In this document: positions 3,215-22,699 of the stretch, piece after piece
Numbering within the stretch: position 1 is the first letter of the stretch
How the letters are laid out: the number at the start of each line of letters is the position of its first letter
Origin: an uncultured archaeon
GTDB taxonomy: Archaea; Asgardarchaeota; Lokiarchaeia; Sigyniarchaeales; SOKP01
Assembly: GCA_964447495.1 (NCBI GenBank)
Contig: CAYUTF010000009.1
Location: 1 to 54,910, forward strand
DNA: 54,910 bases
Direction of reading: 5' to 3'
The notes under the pieces: generated by a model
Database searches by the model: none
What the model saw: only the letters and a program-made list of their open reading frames with translations
What the model was told of the DNA's origin: nothing
Position numbers and translations under genes: made by a program

Positions 3215-5161
3215 GTGAAGTTTATGATTAAAGATACACGTTTTACAGATGAAGAAGGAACGGTTTTAATGCTAGGAAATGAAGCAGTTGTGAGGGGATG
3301 TCTCGAAGTAGGAGTTAGTTATGTGGCACAATATCCGGGAACTCCGACAAGTGATATTGGAGAGACTTTTCAAAAATTAATAAAAGAAGAATCAGAAGTT
3401 AGTGATTTTCTGATCCATCATTGGGCAATTAACGAGGCTGTAGCTACTTCGGAATGTGCTGGTGCGGCATGGACTGGCTGTAAAGTGTTAAATCCTATGA
3501 AACATGTTGGCCTTAATGTGGCCAGTGATGCCTTGAGTGTTATAGCTTTGAATGGACCTAATCCAGGTGCAATGGTTATCCTTGTGGGAGCCGATCCTGG
3601 AAGTTTAGGTTCACATCAAGAACAAAATGAGCGATTTTATACTTGGATGTTCCATCTTCCGTGTTTTGAACCTCATACTCCTCAAGAATGTAAAGAATTT
3701 ACTAAATTAGCTTTTGAATTATCAGAAAAATTTGATACTGTATTTGAGATTCGTACAACTACTCGTAGTGCTCATTCCAGGGGATATGTAGAATTAGGAC
3801 CTTTAAAAAGAGGGGATGTAAAAGGAAAGTTTGTTAGAAACATTCCTAAATTCAATTCACTCCCTCCCCATGCTATTAACAATCATATTAGATTATATGA
3901 AAGAATTGAAGCTATAAGAAAAATCATTCCTGAGCTTAAAATAAATAAAGTTTATCCTGGAAAAAATAAGATTGGTATAATTACCAGTGGTATGCCATTT
4001 GGTTATTCTATTGAAGCTTTGCAACAACTAGGAATTAATGATGTACCCATCTTGAAATTAGGCATGATTTTCCCTCTGAATTATGAAGAAATCATAGATT
4101 TCATAAGTAATCTTGAAAAAGTGATTATAGTAGAAGAATTAGAGCCTTTCTTGGAGGTAAAAATCGCTGAAATTGCTCATAAATTTAAAATCGATGTGGA
4201 TATTATCGGTCAAGATTATCTTCCAAAATATAATGAATTTTCTACTGGACTTGTGGCAAATCGATTAGCAACAATATTTAATATCAAATCGAATCAAAAA
4301 GTAGATAAAGCAATAGAGATGTTTAATTCATATAAGGATATTATTCCTAGTCGCTTTCCAAGCTTCTGTTCAGGCTGTCCAGAACGTGCCACTCTCTATA
4401 CCATTTTAAAAGCTACTAATAAATTGGAAAACACTGTTGTTTGTGGTGATATTGGTTGTTTTGTAATGAGTTTTTTTCCCCCTCAACAATGTAGTGATTT
4501 AATTATTTGTATGTCGGGAGGTTTGAGCGCTGCTATTGGAATGTCCGAAAAGACAGATCAAAAAGTAATAGCATTCATAGGAGACTCAACATTTCTCCAT
4601 ACTGGGATGGCACCTTTAACAGAGGCAACTAATTATAACTCTAATGTATTATTATTTGTATTTGAGAATTTTTGGACGGCAATGACGGGTCATCAACCTG
4701 TCTTAGGCTTAACAGATAAGCGGTTATCAATAGAAAAAATATGTGAAGCTGTAGGAGTTCCATGGATAAGAGTTGAAGATTCTTATAATCCAAAACAACT
4801 TATTAAAACTATAAATGAAGGTCTAAATACAAAGGGGTTTAAAGTAATAATTGTTAAAAGAGAGTGTGCTCTTCAAGCTCATAGGTGGAGAACAAAGAGA
4901 ATAAAAGAACTTAGACAACAAGGGAAAAAAACGCAAGACACTTCATATTATATTGGAGGATGCCAGCTATGTTATGAATGTGCCCGTATTTTAAGTTGTC
5001 CAGCAATACGGAAAGTTGAGAAAAATGGTATAGAAGAAATGCAAATAGACCAAGAAAGATGCATTAAATGTGGTGTTTGCTATGAAATTTGTCCCAATGG
5101 GGCAATTCGAAAATCTATAATAAATTTATTAGAAGAAGAGGTGCCCTTTCGTGAACTTTGA
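3215..5161 (+). CDS. iorA: Indolepyruvate:ferredoxin oxidoreductase alpha subunit
   Basis: LGNEA, YPGTP, MKHVGLNVA, CSGCP, GDIGC, TPP-binding GDSTFLH..N and two C-terminal 4Fe-4S Cys clusters. The true start is probably ATG 3224. Confidence 0.9.
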   Translation: MKFMIKDTRFTDEEGTVLMLGNEAVVRGCLEVGVSYVAQYPGTPTSDIGETFQKLIKEESEVSDFLIHHWAINEAVATSECAGAAWTGCKVLNPMKHVGLNVASDALSVIALNGPNPGAMVILVGADPGSLGSHQEQNERFYTWMFHLPCFEPHTPQECKEFTKLAFELSEKFDTVFEIRTTTRSAHSRGYVELGPLKRGDVKGKFVRNIPKFNSLPPHAINNHIRLYERIEAIRKIIPELKINKVYPGKNKIGIITSGMPFGYSIEALQQLGINDVPILKLGMIFPLNYEEIIDFISNLEKVIIVEELEPFLEVKIAEIAHKFKIDVDIIGQDYLPKYNEFSTGLVANRLATIFNIKSNQKVDKAIEMFNSYKDIIPSRFPSFCSGCPERATLYTILKATNKLENTVVCGDIGCFVMSFFPPQQCSDLIICMSGGLSAAIGMSEKTDQKVIAFIGDSTFLHTGMAPLTEATNYNSNVLLFVFENFWTAMTGHQPVLGLTDKRLSIEKICEAVGVPWIRVEDSYNPKQLIKTINEGLNTKGFKVIIVKRECALQAHRWRTKRIKELRQQGKKTQDTSYYIGGCQLCYECARILSCPAIRKVEKNGIEEMQIDQERCIKCGVCYEICPNGAIRKSIINLLEEEVPFREL

Positions 5162-5801
5162 AGAGACCGATATCATAAATATTATAATAGCAGGGACTGC
5201 CGGACAGGGCGTGATAACTTTAAAACGATTAATAGAATTCGCCGCACAAAAATCAGGCATAAGAAGATGTTTTGGAACTGAACATCATGGATTAGCACAA
5301 AGAGAAGGAGCAATTGTAAGTCATACACGTTATCAAAAAGAACTATATATAGATGAACTTAAAAATATACAATCCCCCCTAATCTCTTATGGAGATGCAG
5401 ATTTATATATATGTATGGAACCCGTAGAAACATTAAGGCATGGGCTTTTTGCATCAAATAAAACTGCATTTGCATTAAATTCCTATTCCATTCCTGGAGT
5501 AATGATTACTGCTGGTTTAGAAGTATATCCAAATCTGAAAAAAATTGAAGTTATTTTAAGACAATACACTAAAAAAGTATATTTTATGAATGCTACTGAG
5601 CTATCTTTAAATAATTTTAATTCTAATCAATATGTAAATATAATAATGCTTGGGTTTGCCTTAATTACAGAAAAGTTGCCTTTTATAGAACTCGAGTATT
5701 ATGAAGAAGTTATTAAAGAATGGCTCAGAGAACCGGATAATAATATAAAAGCATTACACTTAGGCTTGGAAAAAGGCAAACAAATTATTAATAATATTTA
5801 A
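5151..5801 (+). CDS. iorB: Indolepyruvate:ferredoxin oxidoreductase beta subunit
   Basis: GTAGQG and HGLAQREG motifs. Overlaps the iorA stop; GAGGTG SD precedes the GTG start. Confidence 0.85.
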   Translation: MNFEETDIINIIIAGTAGQGVITLKRLIEFAAQKSGIRRCFGTEHHGLAQREGAIVSHTRYQKELYIDELKNIQSPLISYGDADLYICMEPVETLRHGLFASNKTAFALNSYSIPGVMITAGLEVYPNLKKIEVILRQYTKKVYFMNATELSLNNFNSNQYVNIIMLGFALITEKLPFIELEYYEEVIKEWLREPDNNIKALHLGLEKGKQIINNI

Positions 5802-5823: not shown

Positions 5824-6360
5824 TTAACCTGATGTTCTTCGAATTACTTTAACTAAGCCTTTATCTCGTAATTTGCCCATCATATCTTCCACTTCAGATA
5901 AAGGTTTTTGAGCAATTTCTGCACATTGCTCAACTGTATTCATCCCATCACATACTTTCAACAATTTGAACTCTTCCATACTTAGCATGCCTAAATGAAC
6001 ACTCATTTCTGGAACTTCTTTAACAACTATTGGTATTCTTGCTTCTTTACCTGCTTCCAAAGCTTTTGCTCCAACGTCAGTAATACTTGGAGAATCCCCA
6101 AAAAAGCTTTTTACACCTGTAACATCATAATTATCGTTAATATACACATATACCTTGTGTTCTTGCCCAGATATATCATCAGGATCTTCAGGATCAGGAT
6201 AGGGATTGGAATGTGTATGTTCTTTGGTATATATTCCCATTTTAAGTCCATTAATAATCTCCTTTTTATCAAGTTTTAATGCTACCATATTCTGGCATAT
6301 ATCACACCACGCCCAAGCTTCAATTAAGCTAAAATATTTTCTTACTTTATTTTCTGGAAT
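5824..6360 (-). CDS. Hypothetical protein: N-terminal CxxC/His putative Zn domain plus C-terminal winged helix; probable ATT (or ATA 6366) start
   Basis: The frame is open upstream of the track start 6288 and encodes PENKVRKYFSLIEAWAWCDICQN. It is bounded by a TGA inside AAGGTGA. The C-terminus resembles a wHTH (LLKVCDGMNTVEQCAEIAQKPLSEVEDMMGKLRDKGLV). Confidence 0.75.
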   Translation of the reverse strand: MPENKVRKYFSLIEAWAWCDICQNMVALKLDKKEIINGLKMGIYTKEHTHSNPYPDPEDPDDISGQEHKVYVYINDNYDVTGVKSFFGDSPSITDVGAKALEAGKEARIPIVVKEVPEMSVHLGMLSMEEFKLLKVCDGMNTVEQCAEIAQKPLSEVEDMMGKLRDKGLVKVIRRTSG

Positions 6361-17125: not shown

Positions 17126-17713
17126 ATGACAGATAAAAATTTAATTAAGTTAGTGATCCATGGTCGAGGCGGGCAGGGAGCTGTTACTGCGTGTGAAATT
17201 TTAGCAGAAGCAGCATATCTAAGTGGAAATTTTAAAGACGTTCATGCATATCCTTCATTTGGAGCTGAGAGAAGAGGTGCTCCTGTCCAAGCATATGCTA
17301 AACTTTCTAGAACAGACACAATTTGGGATAGATCTGAGATATATCATCCTAATATTTTGATAATTTTCGACGAAAGTGTACTAGATCAAACAATTGCATC
17401 ATCTCTTGAAAATAATGGAATATTTATTATAAATTCCGATAAAGATCCAAAAACTTTAGCAAACGAATATCATTTAAATCCAAGTATCAAAATTGTGGCA
17501 GCAGATATTAGTAAGTTAGCTCTTGACAAAAATCTAACTATTGACGGCAATCCCGTTATAAATACTCCCATTCTAGGGCTATTATCTAAAGCAATCCCTG
17601 ATTTACAATTAAAAAATCTAAAAAAGGTGATTATGGATAAGTTAGGGGAAAAGTTGGGTTCATTAAACTATGAGCTTATTGAACAAGGATATAATCTAGC
17701 CAAAATAACGTGA
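17126..17713 (+). CDS. porC: Pyruvate/2-oxoacid:ferredoxin oxidoreductase gamma subunit
   Basis: HGRGGQGAVT and PSFGAERRGAPV motifs. Confidence 0.92.
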   Translation: MTDKNLIKLVIHGRGGQGAVTACEILAEAAYLSGNFKDVHAYPSFGAERRGAPVQAYAKLSRTDTIWDRSEIYHPNILIIFDESVLDQTIASSLENNGIFIINSDKDPKTLANEYHLNPSIKIVAADISKLALDKNLTIDGNPVINTPILGLLSKAIPDLQLKNLKKVIMDKLGEKLGSLNYELIEQGYNLAKIT

Positions 17714-17735: not shown

Positions 17736-19985
17736 TTATACTAAGGGTAATTTTACAATAAAATTACTTCCTTTATTTCTACCTAATGATTCTGCTCTAA
17801 TTTCTCCATTATGCAAATCTATTATTTCTTTTGAAATAAATAAACCCAATCCAGTGCCTTGAATATCAATATATTCAAATTCTTCTCCTGATCTTTCAAT
17901 TTTTCCAAATCTTGTAAATAACATATCCATTTCCTTTTGCGTTAAACCAATTCCTGTATCTTTTATAGACAATTCAGCAAAATTGATCAACTTCTCAAGC
18001 TCTATCTTAATATCTCCATTAGGAGGAGTATTTTTTATTGCATTAGAAAGTAAATTCATAATCACTTGCTCCATTCTAATTCTATCTAAATCTAAAAATA
18101 AATCTTCTGGAAGGGATATTTGAATGTTAATTTTCCTCTCTTTTATCAAATACATTAATTCTTTGATTACATCTTTTATAATTGAGCTAAAATTTACACT
18201 TTGCTTTTTAAGTTCTAGCTTATTAAACTCAACGCGAGAAATATCTATTAAATTTTCAACTAAAAATCTTAATCGTTTGCCTCCTTTTTCAATTAATTCT
18301 AAAATTTCAAGTGGTTCTCTCTCAAAATTTTCTTTGTAGATATTTAAAAGAAGTTCAGATCCTCCACAAATCGAAACAAGTGGTGTTTTTAATTCATGAG
18401 ATACTCTTGAGATTAGATTTTTGCGTAAATTATCCAACTCTTTTAATTTCTCTAATTCTTTTTCAATTAAGAATTCTACCTCCTTCCTTGACCTAATATC
18501 TGTGAATATCGCTTGAACAAAAATTTCATGATGAATTTTTATAATTGAGGCTTGTAAATTAGTCCAAATTAGAGTGCCATTTTTATGTTGAATTTGAAGA
18601 TCAATCCTATGTAAATCCTCTCCCTTTATAAATTTCTGAAATGCTTCAAATATGCTTTTTATACTTTCTGAAGGTATTATTGGTAATTTGGAAAATTTTT
18701 TACCAATTAACTCTGCCCTATCATATCCAATCATTGTTTTGAGGGTTGGATTGCAATCTATAATTACCCCCTTAGAATTAATTAAAACTATGGAAAAAGG
18801 AGTATTTTCATAAAGGAAACGAAACTTTCTTTCAGACTCTTTTAATTTCTTTTCTAAATTATACTTTTCAGTAATATCAATAAAAGTTCCTTCAATTCCA
18901 GTAGGTGTTCCATCTTTATCTTTCATTAAATGAGAATTTAACTGAATAACTATTTTTTTTCTATCCTTTGTTAGTGCTTGACATATGTAATTCTTAGCAA
19001 ATCCTTTATTCATAACATCCTTAACATAATCATCACGAAGTTCAGGATCTTGCCAAAAATCAGTAACTTTTTTTCCAACCAGACTCTCCTCAATATCATA
19101 TTCTAAAATCTTATTATGAGCAGGGTTATGATTAATCATTCGACCATCTAAAGTAACTTGATAGAAACCAACATCCAAATTATTCACCATATCACGAAAT
19201 TTAGTTTCGGAATCCTTTAATTGTTCTATAGCGTTAATTCGTTCCGTGATATCCTCAGTATGGACTAAAATTAAATCTGGGGGTACAAAGCCGTAATGTA
19301 CTGACAGATGTTTTTCTTTCTTTGTACCAAAAAATTTATACTTCATCTGACGACTTATTTGTTTCTTTTGGGAAAAACAAAGCTCTAAATCATCCAAAAT
19401 ATCCTTACGATCTTTATATAAATCCAGAGCCTTATATCCTAAGAAATCTCTAACATTTCCCTGTGTAATTGTCGCAGCAGCATTATTAAAATCAATCAAA
19501 ACGACTGCATTGTTTATATACCGCCATATATATACGGGAATCGGACCCTCTTTATAAATAGCTTTGAATCTTTCCTCAGATTCCAATAGTCTCTGTTCTG
19601 CTTTTTTACGTTCAGTAATATTTTTCCCAATCCCTAAAATCGCATAAACTTCCCCTTCTTTTTTTAATGGAATACCATAAGTTTCAATATATAAGAAATT
19701 TCCATGTTTTGTATGGATTTTGTATTTACTTACTTTAGATTGTTTTCCTGTTTTTATGATCTCTTTTGTAACCCGATAAGCTCGATTTAAATTTTCTTTA
19801 TCTAACAAATCAATAAATGAAATATTACCTAAATCCTCAGATTCATAACCAAGAGCAATTAAAGTAAGATCACTAGCATCTAGAAAATTACCATTTAAAT
19901 CATTCACGTATATTAAATCTAATGAATGCTCAAATAAATCTGCATACTTCTTTCTAATCTCTTCTTTATTATACTCCATTAACAA
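17736..19985 (-). CDS. Cytoplasmic multi-PAS sensor histidine kinase
   Basis: About four PAS repeats ending in (D/N)ITE/DIR, H-box SHELKTPL, NLLSNAIK, DTGIG, GTGLGL. No TM segment. Confidence 0.93.
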   Translation of the reverse strand: MLMEYNKEEIRKKYADLFEHSLDLIYVNDLNGNFLDASDLTLIALGYESEDLGNISFIDLLDKENLNRAYRVTKEIIKTGKQSKVSKYKIHTKHGNFLYIETYGIPLKKEGEVYAILGIGKNITERKKAEQRLLESEERFKAIYKEGPIPVYIWRYINNAVVLIDFNNAAATITQGNVRDFLGYKALDLYKDRKDILDDLELCFSQKKQISRQMKYKFFGTKKEKHLSVHYGFVPPDLILVHTEDITERINAIEQLKDSETKFRDMVNNLDVGFYQVTLDGRMINHNPAHNKILEYDIEESLVGKKVTDFWQDPELRDDYVKDVMNKGFAKNYICQALTKDRKKIVIQLNSHLMKDKDGTPTGIEGTFIDITEKYNLEKKLKESERKFRFLYENTPFSIVLINSKGVIIDCNPTLKTMIGYDRAELIGKKFSKLPIIPSESIKSIFEAFQKFIKGEDLHRIDLQIQHKNGTLIWTNLQASIIKIHHEIFVQAIFTDIRSRKEVEFLIEKELEKLKELDNLRKNLISRVSHELKTPLVSICGGSELLLNIYKENFEREPLEILELIEKGGKRLRFLVENLIDISRVEFNKLELKKQSVNFSSIIKDVIKELMYLIKERKINIQISLPEDLFLDLDRIRMEQVIMNLLSNAIKNTPPNGDIKIELEKLINFAELSIKDTGIGLTQKEMDMLFTRFGKIERSGEEFEYIDIQGTGLGLFISKEIIDLHNGEIRAESLGRNKGSNFIVKLPLV

Positions 19986-20216: not shown

Positions 20217-20516
20217 ATGACAGATACAAAAAAAGATTATCAAAAAATATTGGGCTCTGTACAAAAACCTGTAAAAGGAGAAGCAGGGAAAACTGGTACA
20301 TGGAGTTCAAAAAAACCGGTAATAAATTTAGAAAAATGCATTCCTGCAAAATCAGGTAAGCCAAGTTGCTTTAATTGTTGGTTATATTGTCCTGAAGCGG
20401 TTATAACAAGAACAGTTCCTCCAGAAATAGATTTAGAATACTGTAAAGGCTGTGGCATTTGTATGGAGGAATGTCCTGCTAAAGCTATAACAATGGAAGA
20501 GGTGATTATAGAATGA
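20217..20516 (+). CDS. porD: Pyruvate/2-oxoacid:ferredoxin oxidoreductase delta subunit (2x4Fe-4S)
   Basis: TGTW..KPVI..EKC...CWLYCP and YCKGCGICMEECP motifs. Confidence 0.92.
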   Translation: MTDTKKDYQKILGSVQKPVKGEAGKTGTWSSKKPVINLEKCIPAKSGKPSCFNCWLYCPEAVITRTVPPEIDLEYCKGCGICMEECPAKAITMEEVIIE

Positions 20517-21778
20517 CTCTTACTGAATCAAAATCCGATAAAATAGAGAAAAAAATAAAGATTTTAACTGGTAATCATGCCGCAGCTCATGCATTTAGAC
20601 AAGCAAAAGTTGGAGTAATATCCGCTTACCCCATTACACCCCAAAGTCCAGTTGTCGAAAAGATAGCAGAATTTATTTCTAAAGGCAAATTAAAAGCCCG
20701 TTTTGTCAAAGTTGAATCCGAACACTCTGCTTTAGCCGTTTGTTGTGCCGCATCCGCAACGGGTTCACGAGTTGGTACAGCAACATCATCCCATGGTTTA
20801 ATGTATATGTATGAGATGCTCCCATGGGCTTCAGGAAATAGACTCCCTATTGTAATAAATTTAGCTACGAGAGCTACAGGAGCACCTTGGAGTGTGTGGA
20901 CGGATCATCAAGATTTTATTACAATTAGAGATGTTGGATGGATACAATTATTTTGTGAAAATAATCAAGAAATTTATGATACAAATATTCAAGCTTTTAA
21001 GATCGCAGAAGATCCAAGAAATTTTGTGCCTGTAATTGTAGGTTATGACGGTTATATTCTCTCTCACACAATGATGCCCGTCGTTTTAGAAAATCAAGAA
21101 GACATTGATGCATTCTTACCCCCTTTAAAACATCATATAAATTTATCAAATATTTCAGTGGTAAAAGGGATAGATCCTGTAACTACCCCCCATGTAAGAG
21201 ATCGAGGAGATGAAGGTACTGCTCCAGGATATTTTGAATATAGATATGCTTTACAAAAGGCTCTCGAAAATTCAATTGATATCATTAAAGAAGTTCATAA
21301 TGACTATGCTGAGAAATTTGGAAGATCTTATGGTAATGGTGTATATAAAACTTTTCGCGCTGATGATACAGATACCCTAATATTTGCTATGGGCTCTGTT
21401 GCCGCACAAACGAGAATTGCAGTTGAGAGATTAAGAGAAGAAGGATTAAAAATTGGATTAGTAAGTCTGAAATTATTTCGACCTTATCCCGCAAAAGAAT
21501 TAAGAGACTATTTCAAAACTAAAAAAAATATCATTGTTTTTGATAGAGATATAGGTTATGGATATGAAGGAGTACTCAGTTATGAATTAAAATCGGCTCT
21601 CTATAACTTACCAGATTCTCCATTTATTAAAGGCTTTATTGTTGGCTTAGGAGGAAGAGATATCACAACCGATCAAATAATTAAAGGAGTCAAAATTGCT
21701 TTACAACAAAAAGAAAAAGGGATTATTTCACATAATACTGAATTTTTAGGATTAAAATTAGATGAATTAAAATTTTAA
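20513..21778 (+). CDS. porA: Pyruvate/2-oxoacid:ferredoxin oxidoreductase alpha subunit
   Basis: GNHAAA, AYPITPQ, ESEHSA, TATSSHGL. ATGA overlap with porD. Confidence 0.93.
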   Translation: MTLTESKSDKIEKKIKILTGNHAAAHAFRQAKVGVISAYPITPQSPVVEKIAEFISKGKLKARFVKVESEHSALAVCCAASATGSRVGTATSSHGLMYMYEMLPWASGNRLPIVINLATRATGAPWSVWTDHQDFITIRDVGWIQLFCENNQEIYDTNIQAFKIAEDPRNFVPVIVGYDGYILSHTMMPVVLENQEDIDAFLPPLKHHINLSNISVVKGIDPVTTPHVRDRGDEGTAPGYFEYRYALQKALENSIDIIKEVHNDYAEKFGRSYGNGVYKTFRADDTDTLIFAMGSVAAQTRIAVERLREEGLKIGLVSLKLFRPYPAKELRDYFKTKKNIIVFDRDIGYGYEGVLSYELKSALYNLPDSPFIKGFIVGLGGRDITTDQIIKGVKIALQQKEKGIISHNTEFLGLKLDELKF

Positions 21779-21796
21779 AAAGAGGGGTGAAAAGCG

Positions 21797-22699
21797 ATAG
21801 TTAATGTTTTAGAAATTCCGGATGAAGAATTAATCTATCCTGGTACAAGAGCTTGTGCAGGATGTTCAATGGCTCTTATTTATCGTATTGCACTAAAAGC
21901 TTTAGGTAAAAATACAATTATTACAGTACCAGCAAGTTGTTTAACGGTTTTGCATGGTATGCAGGGATTTTGTACAACTAAAGTATCTGTACTCCATACT
22001 CCTTTTGCGACTACAGGTGCTTCGGCATCAGGGATTGTGGCTTCATTAGAAGATAAAGGCTTAAATGGAGATATTAATGTGGTTGCATTTGCGGGAGATG
22101 GAGGCACGGTAGATATTGGTATTCAAAGTTTAAGCGGTGCAGTTGAAAGAGGAACTAATTTTATCTTTGCATGTTATGATAATGAAGCATATATGAACAC
22201 AGGTGTTCAACGGAGCGGAAGTACTCCTCCAGGTGCATATAGCACAACTACACCAAATGGAAAGATTGGATATAAAAAAAATATGCCAAAAATAATAGAG
22301 GCTCACGGTGCACCTTATGTTGCAACTGCGATATCCTCTTACCCATTAGATATATATGAAAAATTTTCTCAAGCTAAAAAGATTTATGGCCCCAAATATA
22401 TTCATATTCTATCACCTTGTCCTCCTGGTTGGGGTTATGAACCAAAAGATTCAATAAAAATAGGAAGATTAGCAGTACAAACAGGATTTTGGCCCTTATA
22501 TGAAGTAATCGAGGGAAAATTTATATTATCAAAGGATAGTAGAAGATTTCTTGACCCCTCCAAGCGTAAACCGATTGAAGAATACTTGTCAGCTCAAAAA
22601 AGATTTCGAAATATTTCTAGCGATACTATAGAGGATTATAGGAAATATATTAATAATTTATGGATAGAAATCCAAAAACGATTAGAAGAAAAGCAATAA
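21797..22699 (+). CDS. porB: Pyruvate/2-oxoacid:ferredoxin oxidoreductase beta subunit; probable ATA start
   Basis: GDGGTVDIG, YDNEAYMNTGVQRS, SPCPPGW. The conserved N-terminal PGTRACAGC lies upstream of the track ATG (21869). An in-frame ATA at 21797 follows GAGGGGTGA. Confidence 0.92.
   Translation: MVNVLEIPDEELIYPGTRACAGCSMALIYRIALKALGKNTIITVPASCLTVLHGMQGFCTTKVSVLHTPFATTGASASGIVASLEDKGLNGDINVVAFAGDGGTVDIGIQSLSGAVERGTNFIFACYDNEAYMNTGVQRSGSTPPGAYSTTTPNGKIGYKKNMPKIIEAHGAPYVATAISSYPLDIYEKFSQAKKIYGPKYIHILSPCPPGWGYEPKDSIKIGRLAVQTGFWPLYEVIEGKFILSKDSRRFLDPSKRKPIEEYLSAQKRFRNISSDTIEDYRKYINNLWIEIQKRLEEKQ

Follow-up and report, generated by a model that had tools for sequence, protein, structure and literature searches.

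We analysed a 54,910-nucleotide stretch of DNA (positions 1 to 54,910 of contig CAYUTF010000009.1, assembly GCA_964447495.1; hereafter, the window) from the metagenome-assembled genome of an uncultured Loki-type Asgard archaeon (SOKP01; genome size 3.81 Mb, G+C content 31.3%). The subject is porB, the gene for the beta subunit of a 2-oxoacid:ferredoxin oxidoreductase, which lies directly behind porA and whose first canonical start codon stands downstream of the segment encoding two ligands of an iron–sulfur cluster. Comparison with orthologs and with other genes of the same genome indicates that porB is probably an intact gene translated from an AUA codon at position 21797. The features of the start region are:

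21782..21790, plus strand: Shine–Dalgarno-like sequence GAGGGGTGA, whose TGA (21788–21790) closes the porB frame
21797..21799, plus strand: ATA, proposed initiation codon of porB, aligned to canonical starts in congeners and the same in contigs of four sequencing runs
21797..22699, plus strand: porB, beta subunit of a POR/VOR-type 2-oxoacid:ferredoxin oxidoreductase, 300 codons and a stop when read from the ATA
21854..21865, plus strand: CAGC (CXGC) motif, TGT GCA GGA TGT, residues 20–23 counted from the ATA
21869..21871, plus strand: ATG, first canonical start, at which the public gene call begins (21869..22699, 276 amino acids, MALIYR...)

In the porB frame, the junction with porA reads TAA (21776) AAA GAG GGG TGA (21788) AAA GCG ATA (21797) GTT AAT GTT TTA GAA, translated as LKF*KEG*KAIVNVLEIPDEELIYPGTRACAGCSMALIYR with asterisks for stops, and the N-terminal segment of the 300-residue reading is VNVLEIPDEELIYPGTR. 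An earlier note, made from the sequence alone, had claimed that no ATG, GTG or TTG lies in this frame between TGA 21788 and ATG 21869, that the PorB cysteine motif is encoded upstream of that ATG, and that an ATA follows the Shine–Dalgarno-like site by exactly six bases, with the TGA being part of this site and the porA TAA lying upstream of it; all these particulars hold, the spacing being counted from the last A of GAGGGGTGA. In-frame weak codons are also found downstream of the ATA, namely, ATT at 21815 and ATC at 21833.

The protein contains the thiamine-diphosphate domain PF02775 (5.7e-19; 68.8 bits against the Pfam cut-off of 21.9). The best NCBIfam models are VorB-like NF008818 (387.2 bits) and PorB NF008819 (361.4 bits), and since both substrate-specific scores fall below the cut-off of 405, we refer to the enzyme as POR/VOR-type and leave the choice between pyruvate and 2-ketoisovalerate unassigned. 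Its closest solved chains are the pyruvate:ferredoxin oxidoreductase beta chain 9bt4_C (2.5e-69) and the oxalate oxidoreductase beta chain 5c4i_C, and the motifs PG.R.CAGC, GDG, and NEAYMNTG are common to all three. The P..C and PCP.GW segments, which we take to hold the third and fourth cluster-ligand cysteines, are conserved in this alignment as well. The earlier note assigns this cysteine motif to the proximal cluster in the PFOR family, and according to a published description, both cysteines of CXGC are ligands of the proximal [4Fe-4S] cluster (PMC5020499).

A stretch of 27 codons without a canonical start is by itself not unusual by chance at 31% G+C. What places porB beyond chance is homology: the conserved N-terminus with two ligand cysteines precedes the first ATG, and in an ungapped alignment the ATA falls on the start codon of every ortholog read. 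Position 4 of the 300 positions in the NCBIfam profile pairs with residue 3 counted from the ATA (residue 5 counted from the codon following the TGA).

The porB start among congeners

Forty-one other genomes of the genus were searched, and the start region of porB could be read in 36 of them (22 full loci, a partial copy in G004, and 13 further genomes). The five others are G044 and G055, matched but yielding no locus, and G006, G049, and G052, with no match at the threshold applied (completeness 87, 88, and 79%, respectively). The codon homologous to the ATA is canonical in all 36 congeners: ATG in 23, TTG in 12, and GTG in one. Thus the alignment of porB 5' ends, proposed in the earlier note as a check, has orthologs starting at the position of the ATA, not at MALIYR.

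The two sister species (G041 and G046; 89–90% identity) carry GAGGTGA, six bases, and ATG GTx AAT GTT TTA GAx. The window aligns to them without gaps, with the start codon changed from G to A in its third position and with the ribosome-binding site and the spacing retained. At the level of the DNA, this alignment establishes that a G-to-A change in this species turned an ancestral ATG, six bases past a GAGGTGA-type site, into ATA. Deletion of the ATG leaving a preceding ATA in its place, suggested by one locus (L020) alone, is ruled out by the same ungapped ATG/ATA alignment. Codon 5 encodes Met in most orthologs and Leu in the window and both sisters, so that no nearby fallback start is available.

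The public protein collection contains exactly the 276-residue call of this porB, and the 300-residue reading is absent from it. The corresponding cluster at 90% identity has 23 members; among the 15 listed, 13 are of full length and start with MVNVL (12) or LVNVL (one). Another 276-residue member, P0009, starts with MALIYR; it belongs to another lineage (88.8% identical to the window), and its nearest full-length relatives start with MVNVL. Judging from its protein sequence, P0009 may represent a second, independent loss of the canonical start.

The earlier note had also proposed to look for a G>A error at 21797–21799. This check was made at the level of contigs assembled from sequencing runs, and no letter other than ATA was reported at these positions in any contig of four runs. 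Run X1, possibly the source sample, provides a 3314-base contig of depth 18.4 without differences from the window over 21400–22200, and contigs from X2 (21548–21806), X3 (21615–21818), and X5 (21792–21942) are identical to the window over the ATA. As the codon is reproduced in contigs of four runs with no ATG variant, an assembly error is unlikely. A second X2 contig (21820–22119), which represents a strain variant and does not reach the ATA, differs at seven positions, six synonymous and one non-synonymous (G91E). A search of metagenome contigs for conspecific copies gave no match closer than 84%.

Apparent weak start codons across the genome and the genus

In order to place the porB case in the context of the genome, we considered 2966 stop-to-stop open reading frames (ORFs) of at least 150 codons and scanned those parts that extend for at least nine codons before the first canonical start, recording the five-base ribosome-binding words GGAGG, GAGGT, AGGTG, and GGTGA at 4–10 bases upstream of each codon. 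A preceding genome-wide count without filters on position within the ORF was set aside, as it was dominated by motifs inside genes. In the start-less extensions, the words stand at spacing six before 22 near-cognate and 14 other codons, compared to 37 and 132, respectively, at the other spacings (Fisher p = 8.7e-6). At canonical starts of this organism, the GGTGA-type motif is enriched 4–9 bases upstream, with the mode at 6–7, and the spacing of six at the porB ATA matches this usual distance.

The signal is also seen in ORFs that, like porB, open behind a motif containing the in-frame stop. Among 65 ORFs of at least 150 codons following GGTGA with an in-frame TGA, 21 have a canonical codon six bases downstream, and in 24 none of the first five codons is a canonical start; in these 24, the codon at six bases is ATT in nine, ATA in five, and CTG in one. 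ATT and ATA together occupy this position in 14 of the 24 ORFs, compared to seven of 96 at the four neighbouring positions (Fisher p = 1.8e-7). A second class, in which a base other than G precedes GTGA, comprises 113 ORFs, and 32 of these lack an early canonical start; in these 32, the six-base codon is ATT in seven, ATA in three, ATC in five, and ACG in one. In control ORFs following TAA (945), TAG (223), or other TGA contexts (307), the frequency of ATT/ATA is flat at about 4–9% over all five positions. Among genes with a ribosome-binding site six bases upstream, weak codons make up 15 of 36 starts in the GGTGA class and 16 of 61 in the GTGA class, about nine of these 31 being expected by chance from the control frequencies.

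The five ATA cases six bases after GGTGA are porB, the large subunit of a NiFe hydrogenase, a P-type ATPase, a response regulator, and a membrane protein, with a domain preceding the first canonical start only in porB and the hydrogenase. The window itself contains a 178-codon ORF (5827–6360, minus strand) with a putative ATT start six bases after AAGGTGA with its in-frame TGA; its first canonical start lies 24 codons further on, and the ORF has no Pfam match.

Conserved domains provide a test of the weak starts as N-termini. The test set comprised 35 ORFs with a five-base motif 5–7 bases before ATT (20), ATA (nine), CTG (three), ATC (two), or ACG (one); the 34 ORFs other than porB were scanned against Pfam from the weak codon, and porB was assessed by its alignment to the NCBIfam profile. 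The domain starts before the first canonical start in 16 of the 35, that is, in porB and in 15 of the 34 ORFs scanned against Pfam, near profile position 1 in the latter; three of these 15 are marginal (by 3–4 residues). The remaining 19 are uninformative, ten having domains only further downstream and nine having no Pfam match. Examples, with the first canonical start in brackets, are NiFeSe_Hases at residues 37–120 (codon 94), Usp from residue 2 (codon 48), ABC_tran from residue 19 (codon 46), Flavodoxin from residue 4 (codon 99), and the zinc ribbon of TFB from residue 22 (codon 30); in addition, Ras starts from residues 8–9 in two genes, and ApbA from residue 3.

As controls, we used a random sample of 25 out of 38 ORFs in which the same motifs stand ahead of a codon that is not near-cognate, and at most one of the 25 is compatible with the tested codon as the N-terminus (p = 3.5e-4). 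In four or five controls the domain runs through the tested codon, one of these being a SelD-like gene with an in-frame TGA. Three such controls have an ATT right after the upstream stop or six bases past a weaker GTGA- or TTTGA-type motif, with the Pfam domain preceding any canonical start; these are rubrerythrin, FAD-binding oxidoreductase, and radical SAM genes (G000:C41:2791-3309, minus strand; C59:4612-5811, minus strand; and C122:2966-3856, plus strand, respectively).

Weak codons recur at homologous positions in related genomes. At the conserved start of TFB, preceding SSWN, a weak codon is found in all 23 congeneric loci read (ATT in 18, ATA in four, ATC in one); in one of the ATA cases (L234), the N-terminus is diverged and a ribosome-binding site is not evident, and in four loci an in-frame GTG lies within the upstream ribosome-binding motif. 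In the P-type ATPase, an in-frame GGTGA is followed at six bases by a weak codon in five of 21 loci, namely, ATA (the same genome as porB and L197), ATT (L196), and ATC (L212 and L213); in the remaining loci the start is ATG or TTG or is ambiguous, and one locus is truncated at the end of its contig.

The large subunit of the NiFe hydrogenase (G000:C32:19706, plus strand; L120/L174) has a putative ATA start six bases after AAGGTGA, the first canonical start being 93 codons downstream. In 18 loci of the same genus (45–54% identity, possibly not all orthologs), weak codons at the start position are this ATA, ATT (L183), GTA (L182), and TTA (L186), and the other loci have ATG, TTG, or GTG at the start position or beside it. 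In L182 (G017), no canonical alternative occurs within the 25 codons shown, and in L186 an in-frame GTG lies upstream. On the same contig as the hydrogenase gene, in a gene for a peptidase of the M28 family (G000:C32:2459, plus strand; L167), a GTT six bases after GGTGA precedes a typical N-terminus, basic and then hydrophobic, and the first canonical start is 85 codons downstream. The GTT of L167 and the GTA of L182 may thus be starts, although each differs from AUG at two positions.

The apparent use of AUA at first codons is not accompanied by its reassignment. A gene for tRNA-Ile with the anticodon TAT is present (G000:C80 12510-12582, minus strand), so AUA is an ordinary isoleucine codon in elongation, and it occurs as a sense codon throughout coding frames. 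A motif search yielded a candidate gene for an initiator-type tRNA (G000:C27, minus strand, near 5091), which has the anticodon CAT and contains an intron behind the anticodon loop; ARAGORN, run with and without the intron search, did not report an initiator tRNA.

Taken as a whole, these data are compatible with a permissive genus, in which AUU, AUA, AUC, and some CUG and ACG would be ordinary starts for about a quarter to a third of the genes with a ribosome-binding site six bases upstream (TFB, the NiFe hydrogenase, small GTPases, and porB among them), and in which species would freely swap AUG, UUG, AUU, AUA, and AUC at one start position; we consider this generalization as likely as not.

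Genomic setting, mechanism and alternative explanations

Further genes of the oxidoreductase in the window are:

17126..17713, plus strand: porG-like gene for a gamma subunit (POR domain; PF01558 at 17168–17692, 108.2 bits, exceeding the cut-off)
20217..20516, plus strand: porD, delta subunit, 2x[4Fe-4S] ferredoxin-like (TIGR02179, 84.6 bits against the cut-off of 60.05; Pfam ferredoxin domains)
20513..21778, plus strand: porA, alpha subunit (Pfam POR_N and PFOR_II)

Hence porB has its partner genes nearby, porD and porA directly upstream and the gamma-domain ORF further away. The porD gene has an ATG start and an AT-rich upstream stretch without a ribosome-binding motif, so that porB is the third cistron of a unit of its own; the porD stop and the porA start overlap as ATGA, and the porA stop (TAA, 21776–21778) is in the frame of porB. 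A gene for a 749-residue PAS/histidine kinase (17736-19985, minus strand) stands between the gamma gene and porDAB, and a second match to the gamma domain is found at 5199-5771.

The two stops between porA and porB, TAA and TGA, rule out a PorA–PorB readthrough fusion, as does the fact that in the orthologous loci read, porB has its own start right after a ribosome-binding motif. Decoding of TGA 21788 as selenocysteine is likewise ruled out, since the frame is closed again by TAA 21776, four codons upstream, without a start in between. A tRNA-Sec gene is present in the organism, and the SelD-like gene mentioned above, of the AIR-synthase family (L155; G000:C55, upstream of 12101, plus strand), extends upstream through its in-frame TGA, followed by S-C-K, which fits a selenocysteine codon.

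We propose that the 30S subunit is placed by pairing of the ribosome-binding site with 16S rRNA, and that the initiator Met-tRNA (anticodon CAU) would then read AUA with a third-position mismatch, held there by the ribosome-binding-site duplex. The product would be the full-length PorB of 300 residues keeping the CXGC ligands, and its rate of synthesis would probably be below that from AUG. Ribosomes terminating at the porA stop, 18 bases upstream, may possibly add to initiation by reinitiation, a mechanism reportedly described by Huber et al. in 2019. The change from ATG to ATA would be recent and would have been tolerated because weak start codons are widely used in this lineage, where AUU, AUA, AUC, and some CUG seem to serve as starts on many mRNAs with such a site.

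That porB starts at the ATA, as the earlier note had concluded, is supported by the alignment of orthologs, by the genome-wide enrichment of ATT and ATA, and by the domain test, and we consider it likely that the gene is intact and translated from AUA. The following points weigh against this. Translation from AUA is itself a deduction. None of the 36 congeners shares the ATA of this species, the counts among congeners are not independent owing to their relatedness, and the thresholds of the genome-wide analysis were set during exploration. In the contigs from X2, X3, and X5, of depths 3.3–3.6, the ATA lies 7, 19, and 5 bases from the ends, respectively, and the samples may belong to one campaign. 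The available part of a study of Staphylococcus aureus gives a measured output from AUA of about 10–30% of the AUG level (PMC13009471). Finally, the single G-to-A change of an ATG exactly matches a null start-loss mutation as well, and a paralogous oxidoreductase beta gene with an ATG start (G000:C12, 50% identity) could cover a loss.

These last observations, with the restriction of the ATA to a single species, would fit the main rival explanation, a recent start-loss, whereby the ATG-to-ATA transition, the simplest null mutation, would have abolished or nearly abolished PorB synthesis, leaving a young pseudogene or a strongly hypomorphic allele with another oxidoreductase covering for it; more genes of the POR family are indeed present elsewhere in the genome. 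However, the frame is open over 300 codons despite the AT-rich genome, with no frameshift or stop decay, the sequence is identical in the contigs of four runs, and the differences of the strain variant are nearly all synonymous. No excess of non-synonymous changes is detected either: the non-synonymous distance (dN) between the window and 21 orthologs is 0.096–0.150, and its mean of 0.120 falls within the range of 0.093–0.137 for the others (L026, cut by a contig end, being left out), with the ratio to the synonymous distance (dN/dS) of 0.04–0.08 where dS is computable, although dS is saturated and the comparison therefore cannot detect a very recent loss. As other genes of this genome and of the genus also have ATA where their start is placed, the change is more likely a reduction than a loss, and we regard the start-loss as unlikely.

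Two further explanations move the start downstream. Initiation at the in-frame ATT 21815 or ATC 21833 would give a protein shorter by 6 or 12 residues with the CXGC motif kept, and other genes of this genome seem to start at AUU and AUC; yet these codons lie 24 and 42 bases past the motif, whereas starts cluster at 4–9 bases, and the orthologs begin at the position of the ATA, which makes such initiation highly improbable. Equally hard to maintain is a start at ATG 21869, the first canonical start and the one used in the public call: the 276-residue product, missing the first 24 residues, would be devoid of both CXGC cysteines, the preceding 40 bases contain no ribosome-binding motif (by eye), and the N-terminal segment is present in all 36 orthologs and in 13 of the 15 listed cluster members. 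A sequencing or assembly error concealing a true ATG, conceivable for a metagenome-assembled genome, is scarcely credible given that the X1 assembly and contigs of three further runs read ATA.

Known systems and implications

Initiation at AUH codons has precedents in several systems. The Escherichia coli genes infC and pcnB use AUU starts, which serve as conserved devices of regulation in a small number of bacterial genes. In both these genes and porB, the start is an AUH codon with a third-position mismatch, read (in porB, presumably) by the initiator tRNA; the AUA of porB, on the other hand, is derived and found in one species. Eukaryotes initiate at the near-cognate codons CUG, ACG, AUU, and AUA, their initiator tRNA accepts single mismatches, and the factors aIF1/eIF1 and aIF2/eIF2 are homologous; unlike cap scanning with the Kozak context, here the codon would be selected by a ribosome-binding site at a fixed spacing. 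In mitochondrial genetic codes, AUA encodes methionine and serves as a start codon. This is a change of the code, whereas in the present genome AUA stays an ordinary sense codon despite its apparent use at the first position.

A close bacterial parallel is provided by S. aureus, where the AUA starts of infC, ccpN, and citZ are directed by extended Shine–Dalgarno pairing, according to the available part of the report (PMC13009471). As in porB, these starts sit at a suitable spacing behind a strong ribosome-binding site. The AUA of citZ, encoding citrate synthase and thus also belonging to core metabolism, is confined to one strain lineage, much as the ATA of porB is confined to one species. The differences are that the S. 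aureus system is bacterial, with fidelity ensured via IF3, and was demonstrated by ribosome profiling and reporters, whereas porB is archaeal (with aIF1, aIF1A, and aIF2) and its start is deduced from sequence; moreover, weak starts are apparently far more frequent in the present genome.

In archaea, a "rare ATT start codon" has been proposed for the Asgard tubulin gene atubA of Heimdallarchaeia (PMC13394414, available in part). It resembles porB in having a conserved N-terminus upstream of the annotated ATG and a weak AUH codon plausibly spaced from a ribosome-binding site, and differs in that the codon is ATT, the proposal for this single gene comes from a fold model, and the part of the paper at hand contains no genome-wide treatment. 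The accessible part of a review of archaeal translation names only AUG, GUG, and UUG as starts (PMC7531240), and in ribosome profiling of Haloferax about 30% of putative alternative start sites were near-cognate and, in the part of the paper available, were set aside (PMC7261190). Our literature search found no systematic account of starts other than AUG, GUG, and UUG in Asgard or other archaea, the remarks on atubA and Haloferax being all that was retrieved. Against this background, the ATA of porB alone would be a derived weak start of a known kind, and the wider pattern in the genome is the more interesting result.

The public porB call is 24 residues short and has lost two cluster ligands, and the same fault probably affects dozens of genes per genome of this group, as ATT and ATA are not recognised as starts by gene finders. 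The affected proteins would include those used in arguments about the origin of eukaryotes, namely, small GTPases, TFB, and tubulin. If the reading of permissive starts is true, many Asgard proteins in public databases would be truncated at the N-terminus. Further, if AUU and AUA are common starts behind ribosome-binding sites in this lineage, it would lend itself naturally to studies of how the stringency of start selection is set by aIF1, aIF2, and the small subunit of the Asgard type. In porB the process would be seen in progress, with ATG in both sister species, ATA here, and the site and its spacing kept.

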